From positions 29,282-93,281 of the forward strand of contig JAEURQ010000003.1 in the NCBI GenBank assembly GCA_016788425.1: a DNA stretch of 64,000 nt, read 5' to 3'. The translations under genes were made by a program, and so were the position numbers. Below, in pieces: positions 8,023 to 58,376 of this stretch (position 1 is the stretch's first letter; every line of letters begins with the position of its first letter). The notes beneath the pieces were generated by a model. That model saw only the letters and a list, made by a program, of their open reading frames with translations, did no database searches and had not been told where the DNA came from. This DNA comes from Chthonomonas sp. Lineage in GTDB: Bacteria > Armatimonadota > Fimbriimonadia > Fimbriimonadales > Fimbriimonadaceae.

Positions 8023-9003
8023 GTGAATTTCACTGATGTCACCATTATTGGTGGCGGTCCGGTCGGACTTTTTGCTGCTTTTTACGCTGGACTGCGCGGT
8101 ATGAGCGTGCGCATTGTGGATAGCTTGCCCGAGTTGGGCGGCCAGCTCACCGCGCTGTATCCCGAAAAGTATGTGTTCGACATGCCCGGATTCCCGAAGG
8201 TGCTCGCCAAGGACCTCGCCCGGGACATGATCGCGCAAGGCATCCAGTTCAACCCGGAAATCTGCCTCGAAGAAACCGCCGAACACCTGGAATCCGTGCC
8301 GGGCGGCTACGTGATTCGCACCGCCAAGGGCACCGAGCTCCCGACCCGGACGATCATCATTGCTGCGGGCGCTGGCGCGTTCTCGCCGACCAAAATCGGG
8401 GCGGCGGGCGAGGAAGATTTCGTCGGACACGGCCTCAGCTACGGCGTGCGCGACAAGAGCGTGTTCGCCGGGAAGGAAGTCGCCATTATCGGCGGCGGCG
8501 ACAGCGCATTTGACTGGTGCTGGGAGCTGCGCGACATCGCCAAGTCGGTCAGTCTCATTCACCGTCGCGACCAGTTTCGCGCCCACGAGGAAACCGTTGC
8601 CAAGGTCCAGGCGAGCGGGGTCAACTTCATTTTGTGGACTCAGGTCAAGGAGGTTTGCGGCAACGGCGTCGTGCAAAAACTCGTCCTGGAGAACTCGCAA
8701 ACCAAGGAGCAAAGCGAACTCGCCGCCGACGCGGTGATCGTGAATATCGGGTTCAAGTCGAGCCTTGGCCCAATCAAGGATTGGGGGCTCACCATCGAGA
8801 AAAACCAGATCATCGTGGACCACCTTTACGAAACCAATCTGCCGGGCATTTTCGCGGTCGGCGACGTCTGCAACTTCGAGGGCAAACTCAAGCTCATTGC
8901 GACCGGCGTAGGCGAGGCGGCAACCGCCGTTTGCATCGCCAAGACGCGACTAGACCCGGAAGCAAAACTGTTTCCGGGCCATAGTTCCGATCGCGATCTT
9001 TAG
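8023..9003 (+). CDS. Ferredoxin-NADP+ reductase, thioredoxin-reductase-like (YumC type)
   Basis: N-terminal FAD site TIIGGGPVGLFAA, then GGQLTALYPEKYVFDMPGFPKV, a second GGGDSA dinucleotide site, and a C-terminal GDV...KLIATG. Confidence 0.9.
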   Translation: MNFTDVTIIGGGPVGLFAAFYAGLRGMSVRIVDSLPELGGQLTALYPEKYVFDMPGFPKVLAKDLARDMIAQGIQFNPEICLEETAEHLESVPGGYVIRTAKGTELPTRTIIIAAGAGAFSPTKIGAAGEEDFVGHGLSYGVRDKSVFAGKEVAIIGGGDSAFDWCWELRDIAKSVSLIHRRDQFRAHEETVAKVQASGVNFILWTQVKEVCGNGVVQKLVLENSQTKEQSELAADAVIVNIGFKSSLGPIKDWGLTIEKNQIIVDHLYETNLPGIFAVGDVCNFEGKLKLIATGVGEAATAVCIAKTRLDPEAKLFPGHSSDRDL

Positions 9004-12000
9004 TCTGCCTTTGGCTTCCCAATTAGGCGGCCGCTGATCCATCGCGTGACCTTGCCGATGCCCTCGCTCAGGTCGTCGAGAATCGTGTACGAACACGGAA
9101 TCACGAGAAGCGTGAGGATGGTCGAGAGCGTGATCCCGCCGATGATGGTGATGCCCAGCGTTTCGCGGAACTCACTGCCGCGACCCACGGCCAGGGCGAC
9201 CGGCAGCATACCGAGCACGACGGCCATCGAGGTCATCATGATCGGGCGCAGACGAGTCGGGCCTGCTTCCACCAACGCATCATGGCGGTTTTTGCCCCGC
9301 TCACGTAGCGTGTTGGTGTAGTCAACCAGCAGAATCGCGTTCTTACCGACCAAGCCCACGAGCGTGATAATCCCGATGAATGACACGATGTTCATCGCCT
9401 TATCGGTGAGCACCAGCGCGAGCAACGCCCCGACCAACGCTTGCGGCTGAGCCAGCTGAATGATGAGCGGGTACAGCAGGTTGTTGTACAAACTCGCCAG
9501 CAGCAGGTACACCAGCAGGAAGCCGATCCCGAGCGCGCCGAGCAGATAGCCCATTTCTCGAGACTGAGCGTCGGCTTGACCCAGATTTTGCTGGCGGATG
9601 CTTGCCGGAACAAGGTTCTCCTTCTTCAGCCAGGCGTCAATTTCGCTCTGGACGGAACCGGCGGCGAAGCCCGGCAACAGGTTTGTTTCGACCCGGATTT
9701 CCTCGGCCCGGTTGCGGCGCTCGATCTTGTCGGGCGCACGACCCCGCGTCAAGGTCGTCACGTCGGAGACAAACACCGGCGTGCCCCGCACAAAACGAAC
9801 AGGCGCCTGCGCGATGATCTCCGGGTTATTGCGGTCTTCGGGTGACATCTGGACGCGGATTTTGTACTCCTTGCCCAGCACACGGAAGCGCGCGTTGTCA
9901 TCGCCCTCGTACAAGGTTCTCATCGAACTTGCTACTTCCGCCGGAGTGACGCCGAAGTCCGCCATGCGGGTGCGGTCCGGAATCGCGCGAATTTCGGGCT
10001 TGCCAGCGCGACCACTCGTTTGCGGGCTAATGACGCCCTTGATAGCGCCCGCGGCCAGACCTTCGCGAATCTTGTCGGTCACGCGCGTAAGCTCGGCCCG
10101 ATCATCGCCGCTGAACGACATCTGGATCGGCGCGCCGAACCCGAACCCGCTCACGGTGCTGTAGCGAACGGTCGCGCCGGGAATCTTGCCCGTCGCTTCC
10201 ATCAAGTCGGCGGAAACCGAAACGTCCGTTTTCGTTCGAAGCCTTTCCTTATGCTTCACCCAGAACATCACGCTGTCGAGCAAGGCGCGCTTTTCGAACA
10301 GCGTGGCTTGCACGGCGCCAAGGTTGGTGCCGACTGAACCCGCTTCAAAAGCCCCGCCACCGCGCGTTCCCACGCGACCGATCGTGTACTTCACGTCGGG
10401 GTGCTTCATCACCACTTGCTCAACCTGAGCGACGACCTTTTCGGTCTCGGCCAGGCTTGCGCCAGGCGGCAACTCAATCGAGGCGGTCACCTGACCGGCG
10501 TCCGAGGTCGGAGCGAATTCGAAGTTGAAAATATTCCCCTTCTTGTAATCCTTGGCGTACCAGTTCCCCGCTAGCGCCATGAAAATGAGGAAGACCGAGA
10601 AACCGGCGATGCCAATGAGGTTGTTCCAAACCGGTCGCCGCAGGCGAATCAAGTTGATGATGAACGCCACCACGCCAATTTGGACGATCATCATCATTGG
10701 TCCTTGCGTCACCGCGGCAATCGCCGCCTTCTTGTCGGGCGCAAACCCGCCGCCAATGAACATAAACAGCCCGATGAGGACCACAAAGCCCGAGATGAAC
10801 ACGAACCAGCGATGCTGCAGCGACCACTCCAGGGCGCGGCGATAGACGTTTTCGAACTTCGTGAACGTGCGCTCAAAAGCTTGGGCAAAGCGACCCTTCG
10901 GGTGCTCCACGTCCTCGCCCTTGCGATACCAGCGCGAGGCGAGCATCGGCGTGACGGTGAACGACACGAACAGCGACAGCAGAACCGCGACCACGAAGCC
11001 GATGCCGAGCGGTCGGAAGAACTGCCCGACGATGCCACCCATGGTGGCCACAGGAATGAAGACGACGACGTCGGCAAAGGTGATGGCGAGCGCGGCCAGA
11101 CCGATTTCGGCCCGACCATTGATCGCCGCTTCCACCGGCTCTTCGCCCATCTTAAGGTGGCGATAGATGTTTTCCAGAACGACGATCGCGTCATCCACCA
11201 GAACGCCAATGGCGAGCGAAAGCGCCAGCAGCGACATGTTGTTGAGCGTGAACCCAAACAGCTGCATCACCGGGAACGTCGCCATCAGACAGATCGGGAT
11301 GGCGAGCGCGACGATGAGCGTTCCGCGCCAGTCGTGGAGGAACAGATACACGATCATCGTGACCAGCAAGATGCCGATCACGAGCGTGAGTTGAAGGTCG
11401 AACAGCGATTCGCTGATGCGCGTCGCCACGTTTTGGGTGACCACAAACTCAACCGGAAACGCGTTCTGCAACTGCTCGGTCAGTGCCAGCGCGCCCTTGG
11501 CAATCTCAATCGCGTTGCCTTCCTTGATCTTTTGAATCGTGATGACGACCGAGTCGTTGCCATCGAGTCGGCTCCAACCGCGGCGCTCTTCGACCGTGTC
11601 TTTGACCTCCGCAAGATCGCCGAGACGCACGACTTGCCCTTCGCCGGTTTGCGAACTCGGGTCGTTCACCTTCAAGCGCATGTCGCGGATTTCATCCACG
11701 GTGGCAAACTCGCCCTGCATGCGCACGGTGAGTTCTTGGCCGTTGTTCTCCACCCGACCACTCGGAATGTTGAGCGTCGCCGAACGAATAGCGTTGGTGA
11801 CCTCGGTAATGCCCACCTTGTAAGCGAGCAAGGCGTCCTTACGCAGGAGAATCTGAATCTCGCGCACGTCGCCACCGCTGACCGTGGCCGCGGCTACGCC
11901 CGGAATCTGTCCAAAGCGGTCCTTAATCTTGTCGTCAATGAGGTCACGCAGTTCTTGCGTGCTGAGCGTCTTCGACTTCACCCCCAAGGTAAGCACGGCG

Positions 12001-12410
12001 CTTGATCCCGCATCCACCTTGCTAACGGTCGGTCGCAGCGCGGCTTCCGGCAGGTTGGGAATGACCGTATCCACCTTCGCCCGCACGTCGTTGAGCGCGG
12101 CATCCATGTCGGTGCCGATGTTAAAGTTAAGCGTAACGAGGCTGATGCCTTCCTGAGCGAGCGCGGTGACTTGGTACACCCCGTTGACGCCGGAAATCGC
12201 TTCTTCCACCGGACGCGAAATGAGCGTGTTCAGCTCTTCCGGACCGGCCCCCGGGTAAGCGGTGCTCACCGTCACGACGCCAAAAGAAACTTCCGGATTT
12301 TCTTCCACCCGCATGCTGGTGACCGACCGATAGCCCATGAAAAAGGCGGCGAACATCAGCATGAAGATGAACACCGGTCGGGTAATCGCGACCTTGGTGA
12401 TGTTGTTCAT
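9000..12410 (-). CDS. RND efflux transporter, inner-membrane subunit (AcrB/HAE1-like), 1136 aa
   Basis: Typical RND N-terminus (ITRPVFIFML...), the VLVDDAIVVLENI motif and a duplicated 6-TM/periplasmic-loop architecture. It lies in an operon with MFP and TolC genes. Confidence 0.95.
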   Translation of the reverse strand: MNNITKVAITRPVFIFMLMFAAFFMGYRSVTSMRVEENPEVSFGVVTVSTAYPGAGPEELNTLISRPVEEAISGVNGVYQVTALAQEGISLVTLNFNIGTDMDAALNDVRAKVDTVIPNLPEAALRPTVSKVDAGSSAVLTLGVKSKTLSTQELRDLIDDKIKDRFGQIPGVAAATVSGGDVREIQILLRKDALLAYKVGITEVTNAIRSATLNIPSGRVENNGQELTVRMQGEFATVDEIRDMRLKVNDPSSQTGEGQVVRLGDLAEVKDTVEERRGWSRLDGNDSVVITIQKIKEGNAIEIAKGALALTEQLQNAFPVEFVVTQNVATRISESLFDLQLTLVIGILLVTMIVYLFLHDWRGTLIVALAIPICLMATFPVMQLFGFTLNNMSLLALSLAIGVLVDDAIVVLENIYRHLKMGEEPVEAAINGRAEIGLAALAITFADVVVFIPVATMGGIVGQFFRPLGIGFVVAVLLSLFVSFTVTPMLASRWYRKGEDVEHPKGRFAQAFERTFTKFENVYRRALEWSLQHRWFVFISGFVVLIGLFMFIGGGFAPDKKAAIAAVTQGPMMMIVQIGVVAFIINLIRLRRPVWNNLIGIAGFSVFLIFMALAGNWYAKDYKKGNIFNFEFAPTSDAGQVTASIELPPGASLAETEKVVAQVEQVVMKHPDVKYTIGRVGTRGGGAFEAGSVGTNLGAVQATLFEKRALLDSVMFWVKHKERLRTKTDVSVSADLMEATGKIPGATVRYSTVSGFGFGAPIQMSFSGDDRAELTRVTDKIREGLAAGAIKGVISPQTSGRAGKPEIRAIPDRTRMADFGVTPAEVASSMRTLYEGDDNARFRVLGKEYKIRVQMSPEDRNNPEIIAQAPVRFVRGTPVFVSDVTTLTRGRAPDKIERRNRAEEIRVETNLLPGFAAGSVQSEIDAWLKKENLVPASIRQQNLGQADAQSREMGYLLGALGIGFLLVYLLLASLYNNLLYPLIIQLAQPQALVGALLALVLTDKAMNIVSFIGIITLVGLVGKNAILLVDYTNTLRERGKNRHDALVEAGPTRLRPIMMTSMAVVLGMLPVALAVGRGSEFRETLGITIIGGITLSTILTLLVIPCSYTILDDLSEGIGKVTRWISGRLIGKPKAD

Positions 12411-12413
12411 TCT

Positions 12414-13856
12414 TTACTTCTTCGCCTCGGCGAGCCGAACCTTGGCCTTGTCGGCGAGTTCTTCATGCCCCACCACAATCACGTCGGCGGTCTTGTCTAC
12501 GCCCGCGACTTCGATCACATCCTTGGTTTCCAGGCCAGTTGTGACGGTGACTCGCTTGGCGGCGTCGCCCTCCTTGATCATCACGTACTTGCCCTTGCTA
12601 TCGCTGAGCACGACCGTCTTCGGCAGCACCGTTGCGCCACTCACGACGCGCGTTTCGATCTGACCGCGAGCGAACATGCCCGGCTTCACCTCGGGGGTGA
12701 TGGCGAGCAAACCGATGCGAACCTTAAAGATGCGGCCCACGCTGTTGGCGCTGGGGCTAACCGAGCGAACCGTGCCGATGAACGTGCGGCCTGCGAGAGA
12801 GTCCATCCGCACCGTTACCGAGCGTCCGACTTGCACTTCGCCGAGCTTGAGTTCGGGGACGTCACCCTCGAAGAAGCTGCCTCCTCCGCCGACCATCTTG
12901 GCAAACACGGTGCCCGGCCCGAGGTAGGTGCCCACCGGTACCGGCGAGCCCTGAATCTGGCCGCTAAACGGCGCTTTGATCATGGTGCTCGCAAGGTCCA
13001 CCTGGCCGAGGTTGACCGATTCCTGCGCGCTTTCCACGGCGGCGCGGGCGGCATCGACTCGCATTTGAAGCTGCGGGTCAAGCTGTTTGGCGGCTTGCGC
13101 TTGGCGAAGACCTTCTTCAGCCGCACGAACCTGTTGTTCCGCAATCGCGATGTCCTCGGGCCGAGCGCCGGTTTGCTGCATTCGCTGCATTTCGAGCACT
13201 TGCTCGTAGCCGCTCAGCGCCTGCGCATACGCCGTTTCGTACTGCTCGACCTCTTGCTTGCTCACCGCGCCTTCTTTGTACAGATTGCGGAATCGCTCCA
13301 GCGTCTTCTTGGCGTTCTCCATCGCGGTGCGCGCCGCATCTACTTGCGCTTGCACCTGACGGCGTTGCTCACTTCGATCACCGGCGCGGACTCGTCGCAG
13401 CGAAGCCTTCGCTTGGTCGAGTTGCGCTTGCGCCGCGCGAACGCTCGCGGTGGAGCGATTCGGGCTGACGCGGGCATCGGTCAGTGCCTGGGCCAGCTGC
13501 GCCTGTGCGGAGCGGAGTCCGGCCAAAGCCTGGCGGTAGCGCACCGTGGATTGGTTGGTGTCCTGCCGAGCAATCACTTGCCCGGCTCGGACGAAATCAC
13601 CATCCTTGACGTAGCTCGCGACGATTCGGCCCGGCACCTCGGCGGCGATCATGGCTTCTTCGCTGGTGACGATTTGGCCGGTGACCTCGAAGGTTTCGGC
13701 GAGATCGCGCACGGTGGGCTTGGCCACTTGGACCGGCACCACGACATCCTGCGCAAACTTCTGCACGCGTTCGGACTGCTTTTGCGCATCGCGATTGACG
13801 CACCCGCCCATCAGGGCAAGCGCGATTAACGGAGTAATGAGATGAGAGGATTTCAC
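12414..13856 (-). CDS. RND efflux periplasmic adaptor (membrane fusion protein, HlyD family)
   Basis: Lipoprotein-like N-terminus (ALALMGGC), a long coiled-coil hairpin and a beta-barrel C-terminal part. Its GTG start overlaps the TolC stop. Confidence 0.9.
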   Translation of the reverse strand: MKSSHLITPLIALALMGGCVNRDAQKQSERVQKFAQDVVVPVQVAKPTVRDLAETFEVTGQIVTSEEAMIAAEVPGRIVASYVKDGDFVRAGQVIARQDTNQSTVRYRQALAGLRSAQAQLAQALTDARVSPNRSTASVRAAQAQLDQAKASLRRVRAGDRSEQRRQVQAQVDAARTAMENAKKTLERFRNLYKEGAVSKQEVEQYETAYAQALSGYEQVLEMQRMQQTGARPEDIAIAEQQVRAAEEGLRQAQAAKQLDPQLQMRVDAARAAVESAQESVNLGQVDLASTMIKAPFSGQIQGSPVPVGTYLGPGTVFAKMVGGGGSFFEGDVPELKLGEVQVGRSVTVRMDSLAGRTFIGTVRSVSPSANSVGRIFKVRIGLLAITPEVKPGMFARGQIETRVVSGATVLPKTVVLSDSKGKYVMIKEGDAAKRVTVTTGLETKDVIEVAGVDKTADVIVVGHEELADKAKVRLAEAKK

Positions 13857-15145
13857 GGTGTGGTCAGGGTTTTCTTGGCCGGGGATCCGGTGCGGATCGT
13901 GTACTCGTCGTTGCCGACCGCCTTTTGCAGGGCGGCGACGGCTACCAAATAGTCGTAGTTGGCTTGCGCCAGTCGGGCGCGGGCCGCGGTGAGGCTATCT
14001 TGCGCGGCGATGACATCCAGCAGGATGCCGAGATCGTTGGCGAATCTCACCTCGGCGAGGCGATACGCCTCGCGGGCGACCGTCAAGCCTTCTTCGGTGA
14101 TCGCGACCTGTGCGCTTGCGTTCTTGAGATTCTGCAGCGCGACGTGGACCTCCAGGCTCACACCTTCGCGGAGTTGCAGCAGTTGAATCCGGAGCGATTC
14201 GGTGTCGCGGCGAGCCGCGGCGACTCGCGCCTTGGTCACCCCGCCATCAAAGATCGGGTAGCTCACGCTCACGCCGAGCGTCGTTTGCGAGGCCGGGCTG
14301 AAGGAGTTCGGATTGAGGTTGCGCGACTGTTGCAGTTGCACGCCCATGGATGGTTTCAGGCTGTTGCCGGCCACCTTCTCCTGGACTTCGAGGAGGCTCA
14401 CCCGATTCTTCAGGGAGCGGATTTCAGCCCGTTCGCGATCGGCTGCCATCTTGAGTTCGGGTTCGCTGGTGTTGACCTCGGCGATTTCTTGCACGGGCTG
14501 GAGCGTCCATTGCTGCTCAAGCGGCTCGCGCATGGCATTGTTCAACGCGGCGAGCGCCAGATTGCGGCTGAGCTGGGCTTGATCGTATTGCAGGCGCGCT
14601 TGTTGCAGGTCGCTCTCCAAACGCGTGAGGTCGAACTTGCTGAGCACGCCCTGGGTGTTCTTGAGGCGGGCGTCATTCGCGCGCTTTTCGGCGGCGCGCA
14701 GAGTGGACTCGCGAATCTGCAGCACCCAATCGGTCTGGATCAACCGGAAGTACGCCACCTTGATGTCGTAGCGAGTTGTGTTGCGCGTGGCTTCGACGTT
14801 CTCGCGTTGCGCGGCGAGCGCGTATTCCGCCGATCGAACGGCGAGTCGCACCAAACCGCTGATGTCAATCCCGATGCTTGCCGTGGCCGTAAGCGAGTTG
14901 CTCCAGTCCGGCGTAAAGGCGTTGCTGCCATCGAGCACCCGGCGACTACTTCCGCCGAGCGTCAGCGAAGGTCCGCTGGAAGCCTTGGCCGCACGGAGGT
15001 TGTCGCGATTCTTCACCGCTTCGTTCTGCGCAATCTGGATCGCGAGGCTCCTTTTTTCGCCGCGAGCGACGGCATCTTCCAGTGTAAGAATCGGCGCTTG
15101 AACTTGCACTAATGCGGCAAGCACGGCACTCAGCGCAAACGTCAT
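13853..15145 (-). CDS. TolC-family outer membrane efflux protein
   Basis: Signal peptide, two-fold repeat of helix/strand segments, and operon context with MFP and RND. Confidence 0.85.
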   Translation of the reverse strand: MTFALSAVLAALVQVQAPILTLEDAVARGEKRSLAIQIAQNEAVKNRDNLRAAKASSGPSLTLGGSSRRVLDGSNAFTPDWSNSLTATASIGIDISGLVRLAVRSAEYALAAQRENVEATRNTTRYDIKVAYFRLIQTDWVLQIRESTLRAAEKRANDARLKNTQGVLSKFDLTRLESDLQQARLQYDQAQLSRNLALAALNNAMREPLEQQWTLQPVQEIAEVNTSEPELKMAADRERAEIRSLKNRVSLLEVQEKVAGNSLKPSMGVQLQQSRNLNPNSFSPASQTTLGVSVSYPIFDGGVTKARVAAARRDTESLRIQLLQLREGVSLEVHVALQNLKNASAQVAITEEGLTVAREAYRLAEVRFANDLGILLDVIAAQDSLTAARARLAQANYDYLVAVAALQKAVGNDEYTIRTGSPAKKTLTTP

Positions 15146-15402
15146 TCCGCATCCTCCACGGCCTTCGCTTGTTCAACTTGAGCGCGGAATTCATCCATAA
15201 ATCGGTGCATGTGCTCGATCTTGGTGATCACCACCGCGTCCCACGCGATGTGCCGCATCACCAGGAGCTTGTCGCCGGGCTTAAAGTCGAGCTGCTCGCG
15301 CGCCTCGGCGGGAATGACGACTTGGCCCCTTTCGCCGACGGTCACGGCGCCGTAAAAGCAGTCGTTGATGTTAGGCGGGCGCGATGACCCGGAATCAGAC
15401 AT
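15142..15402 (-). CDS. AbrB/MazE/SpoVT-family DNA-binding protein (first gene of efflux operon)
   Basis: VTVGERGQVVIPAEAREQLDFKPGDKLLV is the swapped-hairpin AbrB-type motif. There is a 4-nt overlap with the tolC-like gene. Confidence 0.8.
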   Translation of the reverse strand: MSDSGSSRPPNINDCFYGAVTVGERGQVVIPAEAREQLDFKPGDKLLVMRHIAWDAVVITKIEHMHRFMDEFRAQVEQAKAVEDAE

Positions 15403-15450
15403 GTCTCCATTTTACACAAAGTATGAAAAGTATGCAACGCCCAACATTAG

Positions 15451-15487
15451 GAAAAAATAAACCCCGCCGCAAAATACGACGGGGTTC
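15451..15487 (-). terminator. Rho-independent terminator after the Cys-rich small gene
   Basis: On the minus strand: AACCCCG-N13-CGGGGTT followed by TATTTTTTCC. Confidence 0.7.
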
Positions 15488-15508
15488 GGCGGGCGGTGCC
15501 CGCGACGA

Positions 15509-15841
15509 TTACATTCGAACCTTGCTCGTGACCACTTGAACGGCGCTGACGTCCAGGTACTTGGCCATCAGATCGGTGCGACCCTTGTCGGCCGAACCAG
15601 CGCAACCGAAGAAGAAGTACTTGCCACCGGCGAAGACCTTGAACTTGGCGCTTTCGCCCTTGGCGTTGCAGCAACCCTTGGCCATCTTTGCGACGGGCTT
15701 GGCCTTGGTCGAGGTGCAGCAGGCTTCTTGCTTGGCGGCCTTGGCCACCTTGCCTTCACCGGCGCAACAAGCGCCGCCTTGCTGACCGGCGATCGCGAGG
15801 CCGGCGGTTACGATTGAAACGAGTGCAATGAGAGTTTTCAT
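15509..15841 (-). CDS. Small exported Cys-rich, Lys/Ala-rich protein with three CC doublets, possibly metal-binding
   Basis: Signal peptide MKTLIALVSIVTAGLAIAG. CC doublets sit at residues 25-26, 41-42 and 57-58. The tail GGKYFFFGCAGSADKGRTDLMAKYL loosely resembles YHS/TRASH-type domains. An AGGA Shine-Dalgarno sits 7 nt upstream, and the gene starts 20 nt after the metK stop. Confidence 0.6.
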   Translation of the reverse strand: MKTLIALVSIVTAGLAIAGQQGGACCAGEGKVAKAAKQEACCTSTKAKPVAKMAKGCCNAKGESAKFKVFAGGKYFFFGCAGSADKGRTDLMAKYLDVSAVQVVTSKVRM

Positions 15842-19255: not shown

Positions 19256-19556
19256 AACTTGAAGGTTCTACGGCACTGATCAACCGATCAGCATCGACGT
19301 GGGGAATTATACTCAGCCCGGCTCGGGCCGATTTTTCGGCGAAGCCATCAATTTTTAGGTTCTTTCGCTTATAACTGTCACATGCGTTCCGTTTTAGTTT
19401 GCGAGGCCTGAGTTCCCAGTACCCGCCTGGTTTCACACAACCGAGTAGGTCGGATGTCGGCCCTTTCATATGAGGTTTGAGAGCACAGTGACTATGGACG
19501 CTCCAGGAACTTTTTGACAAAATGTCCCCACTTCAAGTTCTCCCTGCGTGAAGCAG

Positions 19557-19565
19557 TGATACAAT
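19557..19565 (+). promoter_or_regulatory. Possible extended -10 element (TGaTACAAT) in front of the toxin island
   Basis: TGATACAAT ends 9 nt upstream of ATG 19575. I saw no convincing -35. If it is used, the mRNA would be nearly leaderless. Confidence 0.25.
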
Positions 19566-19574
19566 GAAAGGACT

Positions 19575-20078
19575 ATGGCGAGTAATCTCCGCCGGGTGCG
19601 AAGGGACTTCGTTGTTCCAGTCGCGGTAGAGCCGAAGCGATTCACACGGATCGATGATCCTAAACTTGCGCTTGAGGTTGCTGCCCGTCGTGAGAAGAAC
19701 AATCTCTCCGCAATACGTTCCGGGTTGCCTGCCGTCGGCTCAAAACTAGTCAATCGATACGGATTGGAGTTTGAAGTTGAGAGCCATGTCCACGTGCCGA
19801 CTGCGAACTCAGTCCAAAGATGGCGTGAAGGCAGTCAATCCGATGCCGACCTGTTCCCCAGCATCATCCCTCAAAATCTCAGCGCGAAGCTAACAAGCTT
19901 TGTTGCAGCGGTGGATCGTTGCACAACCAAGACACTTCTGGTCCTTGATACGATGCCCTATGCCCGCAGAGACTCGGGAGTCCCCGAAGGTCATTGGGTT
20001 GATACGATTGGGAACGGCGGAGCCAACCTGCTCTTCATTGATGCCGCTCAGATTCATGAAAACCCACTTTGCCCATGA
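19575..20078 (+). CDS. Hypothetical protein; probable N-terminal part of the downstream zincin/RHS-tip toxin gene, split by a frameshift
   Basis: The translation looks protein-like up to ...GGANLLFIDAAQIHENPLCP*. The +1 frame takes over from about 20056 with THFAHEIGHLW. No signal peptide. Confidence 0.5.
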   Translation: MASNLRRVRRDFVVPVAVEPKRFTRIDDPKLALEVAARREKNNLSAIRSGLPAVGSKLVNRYGLEFEVESHVHVPTANSVQRWREGSQSDADLFPSIIPQNLSAKLTSFVAAVDRCTTKTLLVLDTMPYARRDSGVPEGHWVDTIGNGGANLLFIDAAQIHENPLCP

Positions 20079-21537
20079 GATCGGCCACCTTTGGGTCCAG
20101 TATGTAGACCAGGCTGAAGATGAGCGAGTGATGGAGGACGTGAGCGATCCCGCCCGCTTGCATCAGCTTAGTTTCGTGCAGTCGTTCGTGACCGACCTTC
20201 GAGTCAATCAGATCATCGCGGAGAAGGGTTTCGATGTTTCGGTGATCTTCGAGGACCAGGCGGCGAGCATCGCATCACTAGGCAGGGCGATTGAAGCTGG
20301 ATATCGACCAGAGAACTCACGCGAAGGGGTCTTCATGGCACTGGCCCTAGCCGCTCAGATTCTCGAGGAACGGAGCACGAGCAAAAACGAACTTGCCAAG
20401 CTGGAAGACACCTTGGAGAAGGTCACTCGCCTTGACCCTGAACTTGCGCGCTTGGCTACGGGCTTCGCTGATGCAGTTGTCCGATATGGTTACGAAACCA
20501 AAAGTCAGATTCGATCCTCAATTGATGAATGCCTGAAACTCGCATTCGACTACTCGGGCGACGGAATCGACCTAGAGCGAGACTTGGTGATCCCACCAAT
20601 CTCTGAACCCGACTTTGACAAATATCCACAGTGGATTGAGGGTGCCTCGCCGCAAATGAAGTGCGAGGTGGGCCGGATCATGGCTCGGGAAGATATTCCC
20701 GACGGCTCAACGTGGTCTATATCGCCAGGGCCAGTCAACGCCAGCCTACTCTCCTTTGAGCTACCCGACGGAACGATTAGTGGGCCATGGACACTTGAAC
20801 ACTCGCAAACCTTTGCGACAGACATAGATAACATCCGGCGAATAAATGAAATGAATCGTCAAAACAGAGAACGACAAATGAAACACCCAACCAACGGAAT
20901 GCCAAACTTTCCTGGCCAACCCCGCCGATTTTATATGACAGGCATGGCCAGGTTTCTGACCCGCGTTCGAGAAGCAGAATGGCTTGGCGGAGAGCATCCG
21001 TATGCCTACGCCATGAACAACCCGGTGACTTACACCGATCCGAGTGGGAACAAACCCTGCTTAAACATCGACAAGGACTGCGCAAAATTCGGTGTTCCAT
21101 TCTCAGGATTTCAATCGATTGCAGAATCAGCCTGCAAAAATCTAGTTGACTGTTGGAAGGACAAGAAATGTAAGTCAGAGTTACAGGCTTGCCTGGACAA
21201 GATAGGTTGCTCGTCTGGACTCTTAGGGGATATGGTCAAGAAATGTGATGGAACTCACTGCGTTGATGTCTGGTGTTGTAAACCTGGTTGCTGTGGTTGC
21301 GAGAGCGACGGCTCTAACTTCGCACTCACGAAGAAGGGTACCTTTTACTACAATTGCGGAATAAACCTGTGTCAATCGTTCGGATCGTTAACTCATGCAA
21401 ATCAAATCGCCACTTTTTTGCATGAAGTTTCTCATTGTAGCGGCACCGATGACATTGACGGAACACTTTCCCAAAAATGCAGTGCTCAAGACGTAGAGGC
21501 ATGCATCTCTGTCGTATTCAAAAGGAACCGGCGATGA
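20056..21537 (+). CDS. Polymorphic-toxin-like protein: HExxH zincin motif, helical linker, RHS-core tip motif, Cys-rich HExxH C-terminal tail
   Basis: FAHEIGHLW sits at the N-terminus. RRFYMTGMARFLTRVREAEWLGGEHPYAYAMNNPVTYTDPSGN matches the terminal RHS/YD core pattern. The 160-aa tail has about 22 Cys and FLHEVSHC. The track ORF starts at 19900, but that extension reads as out-of-frame junk. Confidence 0.7.
   Translation: MKTHFAHEIGHLWVQYVDQAEDERVMEDVSDPARLHQLSFVQSFVTDLRVNQIIAEKGFDVSVIFEDQAASIASLGRAIEAGYRPENSREGVFMALALAAQILEERSTSKNELAKLEDTLEKVTRLDPELARLATGFADAVVRYGYETKSQIRSSIDECLKLAFDYSGDGIDLERDLVIPPISEPDFDKYPQWIEGASPQMKCEVGRIMAREDIPDGSTWSISPGPVNASLLSFELPDGTISGPWTLEHSQTFATDIDNIRRINEMNRQNRERQMKHPTNGMPNFPGQPRRFYMTGMARFLTRVREAEWLGGEHPYAYAMNNPVTYTDPSGNKPCLNIDKDCAKFGVPFSGFQSIAESACKNLVDCWKDKKCKSELQACLDKIGCSSGLLGDMVKKCDGTHCVDVWCCKPGCCGCESDGSNFALTKKGTFYYNCGINLCQSFGSLTHANQIATFLHEVSHCSGTDDIDGTLSQKCSAQDVEACISVVFKRNRR
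20857..21050 (+). repeat. Direct repeat copy 1 (pre-toxin tip region of main toxin gene)
   Basis: Aligns by eye with 21881-22077. It contains a 58-nt perfectly identical run (20909-20966 = 21936-21993). Confidence 0.9.
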
Positions 21538-21866
21538 ACAAAACTAACAAAATTGCGTTTTCCGTCGGCAGTGTTCTACTTGCGTCGGTATTGGTTCCTA
21601 CCCTTATCCCTCAAACATTCAGAGTGTACCACACGTTCTCACTTCCAGTATACTTTAACGGTGCGAAAGTCAAGCGGTACGGAGTGTCGCACCTGCACAG
21701 CCAGGTTTTTGTGTCCTATTCAAACCACACCTGCGGCTCCATCTTTACCGGCCGAAGTTTCGTGACCGTTGTAGACGATAACGGTGAAGAGAAAACATAC
21801 TACAGTTGGAAACTTTACCGCACACCAAACCCAGAACGCACCCGACTCACTCTCAGGTTTGAATGA
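21534..21866 (+). CDS. Putative cognate immunity protein 1 (small, N-terminal membrane helix)
   Basis: The ATG overlaps the toxin stop (ATGA), with an AAGGA Shine-Dalgarno 7 nt upstream. N-terminus MNKTNKIAFSVGSVLLASVLVPTLI. The call rests on position directly downstream of the toxin tail. Confidence 0.55.
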   Translation: MNKTNKIAFSVGSVLLASVLVPTLIPQTFRVYHTFSLPVYFNGAKVKRYGVSHLHSQVFVSYSNHTCGSIFTGRSFVTVVDDNGEEKTYYSWKLYRTPNPERTRLTLRFE

Positions 21867-22543
21867 GGATCGAAGTGCCACGTCAAAACAGGAAGCGATT
21901 ATTGAAACACCAGACGATCAACGGAATGCCAAACATTCCTGGCCAACCCCGCCGATTTTATATGACAGGCATGGCCAGGTTTCTGACCCGCGTCCGAGAA
22001 GCCGAATGGCTCGGCGGTGAGCACCCCTATGCCTACGCGATGAACAATCCGGTGACCTACACTGACCCAGGTGGGAATCAGCCCAAGCGGGAAGGTGTTG
22101 CCTTCGCTCCCGGATACTGGAACAGCCCGTCTGTTCAGCCGTATAACAATTGTACGAACTACGCTTACAATCGGCCCTGCACCAGATTTTATGATCCAGG
22201 AAACACAGGTGATATACTCAATCCGGATGGGACATTTAGCTGCCACAAGATTATCTCTGGGGCATTGCGCGATGGCCTGAAGTGGCCAAATCCTCGCAAG
22301 TACAAGTCCGGTTGTGGCAAAGGCTGGCACAAGGTGTGTGTTTATGTCAGCAACTCAATTCCTGATTATCATTGGTACAGACAGGATGAGACCGGATATT
22401 GGTCAAACAAGCCCGGACAAACCCCTGCTGTGAACTGCCAATTCGGAACGAATATCCCGATAACAAATCCGGAGAAAGACGCCGATCAACGATCTTACAC
22501 GAAGAAATGTGGATGCTTATGCGCGCCGAACAAGTGGTGGTAG
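21863..22543 (+). CDS. Orphan toxin cassette: duplicated RHS-tip block fused to a different Cys/His (papain-fold-like?) tail
   Basis: NGMPNIPGQPRRFYMTGMARFLTRVREAEWLGGEHPYAYAMNNPVTYTDPGGN differs at 2 of 53 residues from copy 1. The tail has NNCTNYAY ... DYHWYRQDETGYWSNKPG. Its own ATG overlaps the upstream stop (ATGA). Confidence 0.65.
   Translation: MRIEVPRQNRKRLLKHQTINGMPNIPGQPRRFYMTGMARFLTRVREAEWLGGEHPYAYAMNNPVTYTDPGGNQPKREGVAFAPGYWNSPSVQPYNNCTNYAYNRPCTRFYDPGNTGDILNPDGTFSCHKIISGALRDGLKWPNPRKYKSGCGKGWHKVCVYVSNSIPDYHWYRQDETGYWSNKPGQTPAVNCQFGTNIPITNPEKDADQRSYTKKCGCLCAPNKWW
21881..22077 (+). repeat. Direct repeat copy 2 (pre-toxin tip region of orphan cassette)
   Basis: See copy 1. There is a 3-nt indel near the 5' end. 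Downstream of the identical core I counted 13 mismatches, mostly at third codon positions. Confidence 0.9.
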
Positions 22544-23034
22544 CGCTTGTCGCGTGCCTTCTCATGTGCGGAGGTTGCAAAACGCAAACGGCAAGCAAAC
22601 ATACCATTGATAACCGAACAAGTCGCCGAACAAATCCTCTTGCAAGTAAAGCGTTCGATTACGATCACATTCCGGAAACCATCGAATCGCCTTTAGGCAA
22701 GTTAAGACTACTAACGATCGCCGAAAACCAAAGAGCCATCGATGATTGGGTGAAGTCGTTTCCGCTTCCCGCCAGGACATTTAAAGGAACTGTGCAAGGC
22801 AATCCAGAAGAGTCCTTTGTTGTGGTCGCTTATATTTCCAAATCGGGCTTTGCTTCATGGAATGTACATTTGTTTAGAAATGACCCGAATGGTCGCTGGC
22901 GTTGCTTGCTTTTCGTATCTGGACTGAATTTCGCCAAACCCGGTACGCGCATTTCAAGCGGGATGATGCCTGATACGAAGACGATTGTGCTGAAGGACGA
23001 GCGCAACAATGAGGTGGCTCGCTTCCCACTTTAA
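22507..23034 (+). CDS. Putative cognate immunity protein 2 (exported or lipoprotein-like)
   Basis: In-frame ATGs at 22507, 22513 and 22519 overlap the end of the orphan toxin. N-terminus MRAEQVVVALVACLLMCGGCKTQ is a signal/anchor with Cys. The call rests on position. Confidence 0.55.
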   Translation: MWMLMRAEQVVVALVACLLMCGGCKTQTASKHTIDNRTSRRTNPLASKAFDYDHIPETIESPLGKLRLLTIAENQRAIDDWVKSFPLPARTFKGTVQGNPEESFVVVAYISKSGFASWNVHLFRNDPNGRWRCLLFVSGLNFAKPGTRISSGMMPDTKTIVLKDERNNEVARFPL

Positions 23035-23142
23035 GTGGTCTTCCCCTGCGATTCGAAGTCTGGGAAGAATTCTTGCCCGGACCCGAACCCTGGTCGTAAT
23101 CGGCGCTTTGCTCGTACTGCGACGCCGACGTTAGACCCGTTC

Positions 23143-28337: not shown

Positions 28338-28458
28338 GAACTTTTTTCAGAGAAGTGTCACACTTTAGCCGTCAAACGACAATAAGAAGCAAGATGCCTC
28401 GAAAGAAGGCAGCAGAAGTACGCTCCGAGAAATCGAAGCAAAACAGAGACACAACCTT

Positions 28459-28501
28459 GGCTTGTTCCGACTGACCTCTCCTGGAACAAGCCTATTTTTT
28501 T
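28459..28501 (+). terminator. Rho-independent terminator about 120 nt downstream of queE
   Basis: GGCTTGTTCC-N14-GGAACAAGCC followed by TATTTTTTT. Confidence 0.65.
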
Positions 28502-28522
28502 GCCTCAAGTACAATAGGTTTC

Positions 28523-28675
28523 GTGAAGAAGCAACCCTCCGCCACCCCGCTCACCGTGATCCTCGTGGTGGTTTTGCTGGCTTCTCTCTATCTGCTCTGG
28601 ATCCGTCCCATGCAATCTCCGCCGAAGGTCGAGGTCTCGTTTGAGCGATCCGTCCCCGCCGCAACCCCGAAATAA
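28523..28675 (+). CDS. Possible 50-aa single-pass membrane protein (below the ORF-track size cut-off)
   Basis: My translation is VKKQPSATPLTVILVVVLLASLYLLWIRPMQSPPKVEVSFERSVPAATPK*. It has GC-rich third codon positions like the genuine genes here and one clear TM helix. The Shine-Dalgarno is weak. Confidence 0.4.
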   Translation: MKKQPSATPLTVILVVVLLASLYLLWIRPMQSPPKVEVSFERSVPAATPK

Positions 28676-28695
28676 ATGGTCCTATTTCGGCGAAG

Positions 28696-28808
28696 GTACT
28701 TCCGCTATTTTCGACCCATTTGAGTAAGATTTGTGAGAATACTTTCATGAATCCGAAAATTGGGGCCAAAAGTACTTCCGCTATTTGGCAAAAAGCACTT
28801 CCGCTATT
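28696..28808 (+). repeat. Three same-orientation copies of G[T/C]ACTTCCGCTATT
   Basis: Copies are at 28696-28709, 28772-28785 and 28795-28808. The last two are 23 nt apart. They lie in the non-coding gap between convergent genes. Confidence 0.7.
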
Positions 28809-28844
28809 CTCGCGAAAGTGCCCTTACTTGCTTAGCTAGGTGGC

Positions 28845-36109: not shown

Positions 36110-37582
36110 TTAGCCTCGAAGCAGGTTGAGCACTGCTTGCGGAGACTGGTTGGCTTGCGCAAGGACCGAGAGGCCGCTTTGCTGCAGAATCTGGTACTTC
36201 GTGAAGACCGACATTTCTTCGGCCACGTCCACGTCTCGAATCGCGGATTCGCTGGCGGTCAAGTTTTCCTTGGCCACGGCAAGAGCGCGGTTGTTCGATT
36301 CCAGCACGTTTCGCATGAAGTTACCGATGGTGCCTCGGATTCCGGCAATGGTGCCGATCGCGGTTTCGATGGCGGCCATCGAAGCGTTGGTACCGGTGGC
36401 CGACGTGATGTCCAGACCCGAGAGGCCGAGACTTGCCGACGAGGTACTCGTGATCGAGAGTTGCGTCGTTTGGCCTGCGTTTGCCCCGATTTGGAACTGA
36501 GCCGCTCCAGCGTAGGCATAGCCGATTACGGTGTTGGCGGCAATGGCACCCACGCTACCCACCAGACTGAAGCGGTTACCCGCCGCGTCGGTGAGGGTCA
36601 AGCCATCATCCGAACCCCGAACCGTGAACTCCGACATAATGCCGCCGATGGAGATGTTGACGCCACCGTTGGCACCGCCTCCCCCAACGTTGGCACCACC
36701 CGTAAGGGTCGCGGTGCCGGCTGTGGCCTGAACCAGACCGCCGGTATCGCTAACGCTGACGTTGTTGCCGACCGAACCAAACTTGTTGGAGGTCAAGCGG
36801 AAGTTGAAGTTGCCGGAGCCGGCATCAATCAGTTCAGCCGTCACACCCATGTCGTTCGACTTGGCGTTGATGGAGTCGCGGAGCTGCGCATTGGTCATGC
36901 CGGCTGTCACATTCACCGTTACCCCGTTGATCGTGATCGAGCCAGTTGACCCCACTGCGGCGGCGAGTGCGGCGGACATACTGGCTGCGGCGACGGTTCG
37001 GGAACCATTGAGTGCAGCTTGGGCGGGCAGAGAGCTAATACCGCCGGTGCCGAGCGTGATGTTTCCGCTCTGAAGAATCGCCGAGGTGCCCAGCGTGCCG
37101 CCCAGGGTTAGCCCCGCGACCTTGCTGTGCGTCACCGACGCCTTCACACCGACGCTGCCGTCAAGCAGACGCTTCGTGCCGTAAGTGGTTTGAGACGTAA
37201 TTCGATCGATTGATTCGAGGATCGAATTGAACTGGTTTTGGTTGGCTTGCTTCTGTTCCGGCGACAGCGTGGCATCGTTACCATTGGCAACGGCCAAAGC
37301 GCGAGCATCGCGGAGCAGAGTGCTGACTTCGTTGAGCGCGCCTTCTGCCGTCTTGGCAAAGTTGGTGGCATCGCTGTTGTTCCGAAGAGCCTGGTCGAGG
37401 GCGCCGATTTGGGCGCGGAAGCCTTCTGAGATTTGCAGACCGGCGGGATCATCGGCCCCGCTGTTGATGCGCAGACCCGTCGAGAGTCGGCTCACCGATT
37501 TGCTATACATCTTGTTCGTGTCCCCGAGGTTTCGGAGAGTGTTCATCGACAGAAGGTTGGTATTAACGCGAAATGTAGACAT
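36110..37582 (-). CDS. fliC: Flagellin
   Basis: Conserved N-terminus (RVNTNLLSMNTLRNLG...LSTGLRINSGADDPAGLQISE), C-terminus (ILQQSGLSVLAQANQSPQAVLNLLRG), and a G/T/A/S-rich variable middle. Confidence 0.9.
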   Translation of the reverse strand: MSTFRVNTNLLSMNTLRNLGDTNKMYSKSVSRLSTGLRINSGADDPAGLQISEGFRAQIGALDQALRNNSDATNFAKTAEGALNEVSTLLRDARALAVANGNDATLSPEQKQANQNQFNSILESIDRITSQTTYGTKRLLDGSVGVKASVTHSKVAGLTLGGTLGTSAILQSGNITLGTGGISSLPAQAALNGSRTVAAASMSAALAAAVGSTGSITINGVTVNVTAGMTNAQLRDSINAKSNDMGVTAELIDAGSGNFNFRLTSNKFGSVGNNVSVSDTGGLVQATAGTATLTGGANVGGGGANGGVNISIGGIMSEFTVRGSDDGLTLTDAAGNRFSLVGSVGAIAANTVIGYAYAGAAQFQIGANAGQTTQLSITSTSSASLGLSGLDITSATGTNASMAAIETAIGTIAGIRGTIGNFMRNVLESNNRALAVAKENLTASESAIRDVDVAEEMSVFTKYQILQQSGLSVLAQANQSPQAVLNLLRG

Positions 37583-55839: not shown

Positions 55840-57066
55840 TTAGGTGTCGTTACCCTGCGAGAGACCTTCGATAACCTTAATCAGCGGCAAGAACATCGCG
55901 ATAACGATGAAGCCGACGATAAAGCCAAGGACAACGATCATGATCGGTTCAAGCGCCGCGGTGAGCGAGGCCAGCGTGGCTTCCACTTCGCTTTCGTAGA
56001 AGTCGGCGATCTTTTGCAGCATGAAGTCGAGCGAGCCCGACTCTTCGCCGACCGCGATCATGTGCACGACCATCGGCGGGAACAAGCGCGAGGCTTCGAG
56101 CGGGTCGCCGATGCGGTCCCCTTCCCGAATCCGGGCGCGGGCTTCCAGCACGGCGTCCGACATAATCGAGTTGCCGATCGTCCCGGCCACGGTTTCCATG
56201 GCCTGCAGAATCGGAACCCCCGAAGTGAGCAGCGTGCCCATGGTGCGGCTAAAGCGCGCCATACAAATCTTGTGGTGCAGCTTGCCGAACACGGGCACTC
56301 TGAGCTTGCCCTTATCCGCGACGCGTCTCCCGAACCGGGTGCCCACAAAGAGCTTCCAGGCGAAGACAAACGCCGAAACAGAAATGATCAGGATCAGCCA
56401 GTTTTTCTTGAACACTTCCGAAAGGTCGATGAGGAATTTCGTCATCGCCGGGAAGTCGTCGGCCTTGAGGCCGATATCCAAGAAGAGCTGAGCGAACTGC
56501 GGCACAACCCAGCTGACCAAGAAGATGACGATGCCGGTGGCGGCGATCAAAACGAGGACCGGATAAGTGAGCGCCGATTTGACCTTGCGGCGCAGGGCGA
56601 CGTCGCCTTCCAAGAACGCGGAGAGTCGTTGCAGGGATTCCTCCAAAACCCCGCCGACTTCACCGGCGCGGATCAAACCGATGAACAGGTTGTTGAACGC
56701 GCGCGGGTGGCGTTGCATGGCGCGGGAAAGGCTTTCCCCACCTTCGACCCGTTGCCCGAGGTCAATGAGGATGCGCTTGAGCTTGGGGTCTTGCGATTGC
56801 CGACTCAAAACGTCCAGACAGCGGACGAGCGAGACGCCCGCGTCAACCATCGTGGAGAACTGACGACAGAAGACCGCGAGGTTGGACAGCTTGACCTTGC
56901 CCGACTTGGGGCCACGAGTCTTGCCGGCCTTGATGACCGTGACTTCCGTGATGGTAAAGCCTTGTTCCTCGAAGCGCTTTCTTAGTAGCTCTTCGCTTTC
57001 GGCCTCGGCCGTCCCCTTTTGGATCGAGCCGCTGGCATCCTTAAACGTGTAACCGTAAACTGGCAT
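55840..57066 (-). CDS. pilC: Type IV pilus platform protein PilC (GspF family)
   Basis: Two GspF repeats, 3 TM segments, and operon position after pilB-pilT. Confidence 0.9.
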   Translation of the reverse strand: MPVYGYTFKDASGSIQKGTAEAESEELLRKRFEEQGFTITEVTVIKAGKTRGPKSGKVKLSNLAVFCRQFSTMVDAGVSLVRCLDVLSRQSQDPKLKRILIDLGQRVEGGESLSRAMQRHPRAFNNLFIGLIRAGEVGGVLEESLQRLSAFLEGDVALRRKVKSALTYPVLVLIAATGIVIFLVSWVVPQFAQLFLDIGLKADDFPAMTKFLIDLSEVFKKNWLILIISVSAFVFAWKLFVGTRFGRRVADKGKLRVPVFGKLHHKICMARFSRTMGTLLTSGVPILQAMETVAGTIGNSIMSDAVLEARARIREGDRIGDPLEASRLFPPMVVHMIAVGEESGSLDFMLQKIADFYESEVEATLASLTAALEPIMIVVLGFIVGFIVIAMFLPLIKVIEGLSQGNDT

Positions 57067-57083
57067 GTCGTTCTATCTCTCTA

Positions 57084-58346: not shown

Positions 58347-58376
58347 CAGTTCAGTTTAGTTTCAAGTTGAGTTTGT

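Follow-up and report, generated by a model that had tools for sequence, protein, structure and literature searches.

A probable polymorphic toxin/immunity locus of Armatimonadota with a zincin-like N-terminal domain and a vestigial Rhs-type junction

Several described toxin systems combine a conserved N-terminal region with exchangeable C-terminal toxins, and two of them have particular features in common with the locus reported here. The Rhs/YD toxins (the Rhs proteins of type VI secretion systems (T6SS), WapA and TcC) have variable C-terminal toxins, downstream immunity genes and orphan cassettes sharing junction DNA; the Rhs cleavage site follows two DPxGL motifs with a spacing of 17 residues, the second of which contains the catalytic Asp (PMC8636562). 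In the PVC-metallopeptidase (DUF4157) toxins a zincin-like HExxH domain stands N-terminal to variable toxins and a Sec signal is absent (PMC3482391); the peptidase is predicted to release the toxin, and some described architectures combine it with RHS elements. These toxins are loaded into extracellular contractile injection systems (eCIS; PMC3482391, PMC11297309), and 88% of known eCIS toxins are found within ten genes of the operon (PMC11297309). The MafB DUF1020, CdiA two-partner secretion (TPS), LXG and MIX/FIX proteins (PMC4436062) likewise join a conserved N-terminal region to interchangeable toxins, with immunity genes and orphans. Here we analyze a 64,000-nucleotide stretch of DNA from Chthonomonas sp. 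(contig JAEURQ010000003.1, positions 29,282 to 93,281; henceforth the window), in which an island of low G+C content carries five open reading frames (ORFs A to E, Table 1). This island is probably a polymorphic toxin/immunity locus of an unnamed Armatimonadota family, in which a large zincin-like N-terminal domain (N-domain) is linked to variable toxin tails through a remnant of the Rhs core, here called the tip.

Exchangeable tails and their downstream genes

The proteins of this family have a common architecture that consists of a ~440-aa N-domain, a linker, a ~42-aa Rhs-type tip and a Cys-rich tail of ~156 aa. An exhaustive profile search assigned 162 cluster representatives (at 50% identity) to it with E<=1e-30 and 289 with E<=1e-10, and scans of genomes and metagenomes gave at least 11 and at least 10 loci, respectively. 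The family appears to be largely confined to the Armatimonadota, with Fimbriimonadaceae, Fimbriimonas, Chthonomonas, Chthonomonadaceae and other members of the phylum as its named carriers; relatives were absent from IMG/VR viral contigs, GenBank phages and PLSDB plasmids. Members were also encountered in two metagenome-assembled genomes (MAGs) labeled 'Methanoregulaceae archaeon' (L015, JADZEW010000001.1) and 'Cryobacterium sp.' (P0209), most likely as a result of binning contamination by Armatimonadota contigs, or otherwise of rare horizontal transfer.

When the tails of 102 full-length members were cut after the tip and clustered by blastp (E<=1e-5, single linkage), they fell into 48 unrelated types with a median length of 156 aa, so that the conserved tip with swapped tails, for which an earlier note on this DNA had proposed to inspect related loci, is indeed found there. 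The tails are rich in cysteine (8.4% vs 1.2% in the N-part), and they appear to have been swapped independently of the relatedness of the N-domains to which they are attached: of the eight pairs whose N-parts have 90% identity or more, none has a common tail, of the 46 pairs at 80-90% identity just three do, and, conversely, tails that are 35-58% identical occur on N-parts that are merely 25-30% identical. The recognizable tails comprise Ntox44 (E 1.9e-12), Ntox16 (1.6e-10), three DPBB_1 lytic transglycosylases, SLT, NAGPA and PLA2, which by similarity would be established polymorphic-toxin domains and envelope-degrading enzymes. Toxicity of the tails is argued by homology only, namely that of some of them to Ntox44, Ntox16, SLT, DPBB and PLA2.

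Tail 1 of the window corresponds to the Cys-rich C-terminus of about 160 aa that had been noticed in the sequence before, and the same tail is encountered only in P0001, the best homologue of the lead protein. An LHExx(H/G)xC motif, common to tail 1 and several other tail types (alignment A1), hints that tail 1 may be a small metallopeptidase. Tail 2, encoded by ORF D, belongs to a set of six members with an invariant C in NNCxNY and an invariant DYHWYR, one of which carries a different Rhs-like tip. It is this invariant C...DYHWYR pattern only that suggests a papain-like Cys/His hydrolase; a Foldseek search with the tail 2 model was uninformative.

The genes that follow the toxins provide a second line of contextual evidence. 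Each of the 16 toxin or orphan modules in 12 loci has an ORF of 61-327 aa behind it, at a distance of -40 to +110 nt, and every one of these ORFs has a strongly hydrophobic N-terminus (maximum Kyte-Doolittle value over 15 residues 1.7-3.4), indicating a predicted signal peptide, lipobox or transmembrane (TM) anchor. In the window, ORF C begins with a putative signal peptide or TM anchor (MNKTNKIAFSVGSVLLASVLVPTLI; maximum 2.42) and ORF E with a lipoprotein-like signal (MRAEQVVVALVACLLMCGGC; maximum 2.69), and neither matches a family in Pfam, NCBIfam or PHROGs. The downstream ORFs are homologous to each other only where the tails are, and hence track the tail and not the locus. For example, L001 and the L005 orphan have Ntox44 tails with 64% identity and downstream ORFs with 40% (E 1.6e-28), and between L003 and L006 the tails are 87% and the downstream ORFs 77% identical. 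This supports their identification as tail-matched candidate immunity proteins.

ORF D is made up of a 30-aa remnant of the N-domain, the second copy of the tip and tail 2. Orphan cassettes of this kind, with 30-120 residues of N-domain remnant, are present in the window and in L005, L007 and L011, and L006 has as its lead tail the one found in the L007 orphan (97% identical). The toxin/immunity gene grammar that the earlier note had read from the window is thus repeated in the homologous loci. Because the tails are swapped, the downstream ORFs co-vary with them and orphans occur, the assignment to the polymorphic toxin systems (sensu Zhang/Aravind 2012), with their interchangeable tails, co-varying downstream gene and orphan cassettes with a common junction, appears well supported at the level of sequence.

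Head domain, Rhs-type tip and split lead gene

The N-domain is an uncharacterized family, and we found no evidence for a role in export. In the window protein and 33 homologues it matches no Pfam, NCBIfam or PHROG family, the family profile has no match to this domain in the PDB, and a profile of the zincin sub-domain alone retrieved no relatives outside the family; the zincin motif gave one motif-level match to Reprolysin_3 (E 0.036). Residues H167, E168 and H171 of the motif, together with D156, E162, D182 and R184, are invariant in alignments of 23 and of 63 homologues. An AlphaFold2 (AF2) model of P0001 built on the 63-sequence alignment has a predicted local distance difference test score (pLDDT) above 90 over residues ~25-430. 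It shows a mixed beta-sheet with strands between 57 and 155, the HExxH helix 162-177 (placed after strands 120-155, with E181/D182 conserved), a helical bundle at 192-336 and a three-stranded module at 379-407, followed by a disordered linker at 436-450 and a poorly predicted tip and tail. Foldseek found no significant fold match to this model in the PDB (best DPP3, E 0.18). The sole fold match of the N-domain is an uncharacterized 229-aa viral protein in BFVD (E 9.7e-6, TM-score 0.71 on the target), which says nothing about function. From motif and modeled topology it is plausible that the N-domain is zincin-like, with a putative peptidase activity.

The PVC-metallopeptidases provide the closest functional analogy, in that the N-domain may work like one, though it is not a demonstrable member of that family. 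No match to PF13699 (DUF4157) was obtained with the window protein (E<=1) or with 23 members (E<=0.1), the length of the domain is ~440 aa as against ~80 aa, and the PVC-metallopeptidase signature HExxHxxQ-E (PMC3482391) differs from the HExGHxWxQYVxxxED of the present family (HExxHxxxQ..ED), where the Q lies one position further on. In addition, many PVC toxins have no immunity gene (PMC3482391), whereas it is always present here; eCIS toxins lie near their operon, whereas no eCIS genes are found within +/-10 kb of the 12 loci or in the window. Certain divergent members (P0124-P0149) have an extra helical N-terminal module of ~100 aa (...AKKLLKxxRxxDPxA...LxDAQLxIAREYGFxSWxxL...) and, in the linker before the tip, 2-3 repeats of (I/V)PDxFGRLPGDPxYNT; neither element matches Pfam or NCBIfam.

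None of 81 toxin N-termini reaches a hydrophobicity of 1.8 (maximum 1.34, median 0.46), and no known trafficking domain from Pfam or NCBIfam is located in the N-terminal region. A possible Tat signal in 'RRVRRDFVVPVAV' was rejected, as its hydrophobic stretch is only 7 residues long and is not conserved.

The tip matches TIGR03696 (Rhs_assc_core) over profile positions ~35-76 of 76 only, that is, over half of the model, and scores in nine proteins (18.8-29.4 bits, E down to 8e-7) remain below the curated cut-off of 32.5 bits. Its R, Y, G, G and P residues are invariant throughout the family. The matches of the family profile in the PDB are weak (E 0.1-2.5), with six of the seven molecules of the Rhs/YD type; they are to TccC3, YenC2, Tse5 and two teneurin-like proteins, besides the unrelated EbhA, which aligns to another part of the profile. 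The Rhs/YD matches are close to the C-terminus of the Rhs core or directly at it, those of Tse5 and one teneurin-like protein at the very end of the deposited chain. Homology of the tip to the C-terminal half of the RHS-associated core is, by these comparisons, credible. The family would then have in common with Rhs/YD toxins the last ~42 residues of the core and the second DPxG motif with the catalytic Asp (PMC8636562): D489, P490 and G492 are kept in at least 90% of the sequences. Unlike those toxins, it lacks the YD cocoon, the first DPxGL motif, PAAR, VgrG, TcB and a signal peptide. No RHS_repeat/YD match was obtained in the window protein or in 23+10 members, and the AF2 model is alpha/beta and helical; as neither the profile searches nor the model contain a YD shell, the term shell-less Rhs tip is accurate.

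Much of what the earlier note had recognized in this part of the protein holds. The conserved block is indeed placed with the Rhs_assc_core profile, if below threshold, and most of its PDB matches are of the Rhs/YD type; the block does recur in a second copy; the toxin lacks a signal peptide, in keeping with the 81 family N-termini; and Pfam and NCBIfam searches of the island and 20 large flanking ORFs agree with the reported absence of YD, PAAR, VgrG, LXG/WXG and TPS elements. None of the MafB, CdiA, LXG, MIX or FIX domains was detected in the window, and each of these is tied to Sec, T5SS, T7SS or T6SS (the type V, VII and VI secretion systems), unlike the family described here.

At the DNA level, the two copies of the tip belong to a direct repeat (20892-21057 and 21919-22084) with 90% identity over 166 nt, preceded by 40 nt at 75%. 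The 166-nt repeat is far beyond chance, and the junction repeat probably supplies the homologous DNA through which cassettes are exchanged. In Logan, five independently assembled contigs from this strain (L017-L021) stop exactly at 20938, inside the repeated tip and junction, a pattern suggestive of a branch in the assembly graph that arises either from the repeat within the genome or from variation of the tail at the strain level.

Table 1. Positions, in the window, of the features of the island
Feature	Position	Strand	Description
Left edge of low-G+C island, upstream intergenic	19256..19574		G+C falls 0.62 -> 0.52
ORF A	19575..20078	+	167 aa; JNJ45_07505; N-terminal ~163 residues of the ancestral toxin, 5 out-of-frame codons and TGA
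ORF B	20056..21537	+	493 aa from ATG at 20056 (listed as 19900/20056-21537); JNJ45_07510; remaining N-domain, Rhs-type tip, toxin tail 1
Frameshift site	20059..20062	+	A-run of 4 vs 3 in five homologous loci
HEIGH zincin motif	20074..20088	+	H167, E168, H171 of the restored protein
Junction repeat, copy 1	20848..21057	+	pairs with 21872-22084; 40 nt at 75% and 166 nt at 90%
Rhs-type tip, copy 1	20926..21051	+	RFYMTGMARFLTRVREAEWLGGEHPYAYAMNNPVTYTDPSGN; TIGR03696 E 1.4e-6, 28.7 bits
Toxin tail 1	21052..21534	+	161 aa, Cys-rich, LHEVSHC (HExxH-like) motif
ORF C	21534..21866	+	110 aa; candidate immunity protein 1
ORF D	21863..22543	+	226 aa; JNJ45_07515; orphan cassette
Junction repeat, copy 2	21872..22084	+	pairs with 20848..21057
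Rhs-type tip, copy 2	21953..22078	+	in ORF D
Toxin tail 2	22079..22540	+	in ORF D
ORF E	22519..23034	+	171 aa; JNJ45_07520; candidate immunity protein 2

The lead gene of the island requires a correction of the earlier note, which had taken the 167-aa ORF A for a gene of its own and had placed the zincin motif at the opening of a ~490-aa protein. ORFs A and B are two pieces of one gene for a protein of ~653 aa, split by a 1-nt insertion: ORF A is the N-terminal part of the toxin, cut off by an extra A, and, as the two ORFs are one gene, the HExxH motif lies at residue ~167 of the restored protein and not at its N-terminus. A search with the joined ORFs retrieved 73 proteins of ~380-785 aa, most of them 600-780 aa, and the full-length ones cross both halves uninterrupted; the best of them, P0001, matches the 653-aa query over 100% of its length at 82% identity. 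In every aligned homologue the reading frame continues unbroken across the junction (IHETHFAHEIGH / LLFIDAAQIHETHFAHEIGHLW), and in a DNA alignment with L001, L002, L003, L005 and L006 the window has CATGAAAACCCAC where these have CATG-AAACCCAC. Programmed frameshifting was considered and rejected, since it would need a +1 shift at GAA-A-ACC on the 4-A run, and all aligned homologues do without such a shift. At least 13 contigs from nine Sequence Read Archive (SRA) runs encode exactly the 167-aa product, and the Logan contigs with the split gene are 99.98-100% identical to the window. Given this number of contigs and runs, the lesion is fixed in a widely sampled strain and is not an error of MAG assembly.

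Delivery and competing explanations

In the explanation that we prefer, the ancestral lead protein of ~653 aa would begin with a short non-hydrophobic N-terminus, continue with a ~440-aa domain composed of a zincin-like alpha/beta module (HExxH, with an E/D 10 residues further along), a bundle of helices and a small beta module, and then pass through a disordered linker and a ~42-aa vestige of the last YD repeat with the Rhs cleavage motif into a ~160-aa Cys-rich toxin. Its gene would be followed by that of a coupled exported immunity protein, by a displaced orphan tip and toxin, and by the orphan's own exported immunity protein. That new tail and immunity cassettes are exchanged by recombination in the conserved tip and junction is shown by the comparison of loci. 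The pro-toxin would be made in the cytoplasm, where the Cys-rich tail might stay reduced and harmless to the producer, and its export would bypass Sec and Tat and use a machine whose genes lie elsewhere. The linker or the tip might then be cut by the zincin domain and/or by D489, the Asp kept in the DPxG motif, and the freed tail would fold oxidatively and attack the envelope of a neighboring cell unless a membrane-anchored immunity protein binds it. In the present strain, with its interrupted lead gene, the locus would mainly be an immunity-gene store with a spare cassette.

Several observations weigh against this explanation. Both tails of the window are without a recognized family in Pfam, NCBIfam or PHROGs, and the AF2 model of tail 2 (7 sequences) has a pLDDT of 67, with the region of the putative catalytic Cys below 50. 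The zincin domain matches no peptidase family in Pfam and no PDB fold, so that the argument for peptidase activity is one of motif conservation only. The first DPxGL motif of the Rhs cleavage region is absent, and TxVR(L/E)AE stands in its place (family consensus FLTxVRLAExLGGE). No delivery apparatus is found within +/-10 kb of the 12 loci or in the 64-kb window, and the genome analysis of Fimbriimonas ginsengisoli reports only a type II secretion system (T2SS), some type IV secretion system genes and TatC (PMC4072686), leaving an injection-type route without positive support. Lastly, the frameshifted copy in the window may do nothing.

This last point can be extended to a distinct account, in which the locus in this genome is a decaying relic consisting of a lead pseudogene, an orphan without a delivery domain and two immunity genes that are at most useful against the toxins of related strains. 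We regard this account as marginally favored, and give the same slight preference to the view that the lead gene of this strain is a pseudogene; the lead toxin probably has no activity. The strain in which the frameshift is fixed was found in nine runs, the cut separates the beta-sheet of the zincin module from its active-site helix, and the orphan keeps merely 30 residues upstream of the tip. However, ORF B is free of any other stop or frameshift along its 493 codons, and its ATG lies exactly at the junction (20056), making a two-piece protein conceivable; from these two facts, either the inactivation was recent or a two-piece protein is tolerated. What the account of a relic describes, moreover, is the state of this copy; it leaves the nature of the system aside and agrees with a toxin/immunity locus as set out above.

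As for the export step, our best guess, held tentatively, is a contact-dependent injection-type machine encoded elsewhere; lysis or diffusion is a possible but somewhat doubtful means of export, and a new dedicated route is unlikely. The neighborhoods offer few hints. No T6SS, contractile injection system (sheath, tube or baseplate), TPS or LXG element lies near any of the 12 loci, nor do the loci scanned contain the T6SS markers PAAR, VgrG, Hcp, MIX or FIX, or a toxin adjacent to vgrG, hcp or adaptor genes. L001 adjoins an element with a serine recombinase, relaxase and TraG, and P0001 lies near an integrase. The only secretion-related neighbor seen is in L002 (CP129494.1), where the toxin gene comes directly after pilMNOPQ/secretin, and this adjacency is probably a coincidence. 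On a rather improbable view, the ~440-aa zincin N-domain may mark an undescribed Sec-independent export and release of envelope-directed toxins in the Armatimonadota, and could itself be a self-contained export/uptake module or the loading tag of an unrecognized machine.

The main rival for the export step is a colicin-like bacteriocin released by lysis. A diffusible toxin of the colicin/pyocin type would leave the producer by lysis or leakage, its N-domain would serve in receptor binding and import into the periplasm, and the disulfide-rich tail would be a stable warhead. Colicins and S-type pyocins resemble the present family in the absence of a signal peptide (here from 81 members), in a modular head with an exchangeable killing domain and in an immunity gene directly downstream; no secretion genes are found near any locus examined, and the tails are small, with the high Cys content given above. 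Small Cys-rich domains are typical of extracellular proteins. However, a lysis or release gene is not recognizable in the island and no sigma-70-type promoter reached significance there (neither SOS boxes nor a plasmid context were looked for), the N-domain is unlike known colicin or pyocin translocation and receptor domains, and its invariant HExxH would have no role in a colicin scheme, just as the Rhs tip has no counterpart there. On balance we consider a bacteriocin rather unlikely.

Two further alternatives have very little left to recommend them. A truncated classical Rhs gene, with the tips and tails as ordinary Rhs orphans downstream of an unrelated zincin gene, would agree with the JGI label of the homologues ('RHS repeat-associated protein'), with the TIGR03696 match and with the common occurrence of orphan Rhs C-termini (PMC7043789), but is already contradicted by more than 100 full-length members in many genomes with the same continuous order of N-domain, linker, tip and tail, by the lack of YD repeats in every member and by orphan remnants before the tip that are homologous to the zincin-family N-domain and not to an Rhs shell. 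Equally improbable is a toxin-antitoxin or abortive-infection module that acts inside the cell and does not leave it: a small, potentially neutralizing gene after a toxin without signal peptide would suit it, whereas the signal-peptide, TM or lipobox-like N-termini of all 16 downstream ORFs, the peptidoglycan- and lipid-degrading enzymes among the tails and a Cys content ill-suited to the cytoplasm would not.

Genomic setting and biological meaning

A sliding profile in 400-nt windows gives a G+C content of 0.46-0.55 across ~19.2-23.1 kb vs 0.58-0.68 in both flanks, making this the deepest dip of the whole window and bearing out the AT-richer island described before. Within it the tails and small ORFs are lowest (0.46-0.50), and the conserved N-part lies at 0.52-0.55. 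No tRNA is found in the island or at its left edge, where a flanking repeat was also sought and not found; promoter and terminator scans gave matches at chance level only, and Rfam has no match in the window. All five ORFs are on the plus strand, as had been claimed, and NCBI annotates A, B, D and E as hypothetical proteins. ATGA overlaps join B to C (21534-21537) and C to D (21863-21866), and D and E share 25 nt; because of these overlaps the genes of the window are predicted to be translationally coupled.

The upstream flank contains an RND efflux trio, MetK, a DegT aminotransferase and a Zn-dependent alcohol dehydrogenase, and the downstream flank an MFS transporter followed by GAPDH, with the dehydrogenase and the transporter bordering the island as first reported. 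In an all-against-all clustering of the neighbors of the 12 loci, the toxin is the only protein family common to the neighborhoods, and the loci lie at differing housekeeping sites. Taken with the G+C dip, this argues for a foreign origin, and horizontal acquisition of the island forms part of the explanation that, as a whole, we hold to be probable.

Other features of the window and of the related loci may be recorded here. An RND efflux pump (AcrB-like protein and membrane-fusion protein) lies up to ~10 kb from the toxin in three of the 12 loci (L009, L013 and the window, 9000-13856), probably reflecting conserved synteny among related genomes and not a functional link. Between the OEP gene and metK (~15140-15830; L017 1568-2267) a gene for an 86-aa MazE-antitoxin-like protein (PF04014) and a 110-aa ORF without a family may form a small toxin-antitoxin pair, in a region of slightly lower G+C content (0.58). 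A second, smaller dip (28340-28840, 0.50-0.53) is intergenic, between a QueE-like radical-SAM gene and a GAF-PAS histidine kinase gene, and contains no credible ORF or Rfam match. Further large ORFs of the window encode MutS and the following proteins. A protein of 596 aa from the Omp85 superfamily has POTRA domains, among them a match to the ShlB-type POTRA_2 (42639-44429, plus strand); its gene lies at a distance of 20 kb from that of the toxin, and it may be a paralogue of BamA/TamA or else a TpsB-like transporter; in L005 a patatin-Omp85 gene is situated ~6 kb upstream of the toxin. The OEP and Omp85 genes identify the organism as diderm. An 817-aa DUF5118-DUF5117-DUF4953 Met-zincin (51419-53872, plus strand) is unrelated to the zincin module of the toxin. 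On the minus strand are genes of the type IV pilus/T2SS-like proteins PilC (T2SSF), PilT-like and PilB-like (T2SSE with an MshEN domain; 55840-60158), and a flagellin gene with Flagellin_N and Flagellin_C (36110-37582), indicating a motile lineage of Armatimonadota; the described Fimbriimonas ginsengisoli is non-motile (PMC4072686).

Judged by its sequences, the family appears to constitute a new class of polymorphic toxins, characterized by a new class-defining head domain and a vestigial Rhs junction. A toxin class would thereby be added to a poorly studied and hard-to-culture phylum, with a head that matches no curated family or solved fold. The tails amount to a catalogue of ~48 types or more, disulfide-rich and for the most part without annotation, and each type has its matched exported candidate immunity protein. 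There is also a lesson for annotation, in that the hypothetical proteins JNJ45_07505 and JNJ45_07510 are one frameshifted gene. An Rhs junction without a cocoon would separate the role of the Rhs core as shell plug and autoprotease from its role as a junction for recombination and cleavage. Should the view of an undescribed export be true, the Rhs junction could act as an autonomous module for cleavage and recombination without a YD cocoon, and, if the export route is new, diderm bacteria outside the Proteobacteria would possess an additional mode of secretion or delivery.

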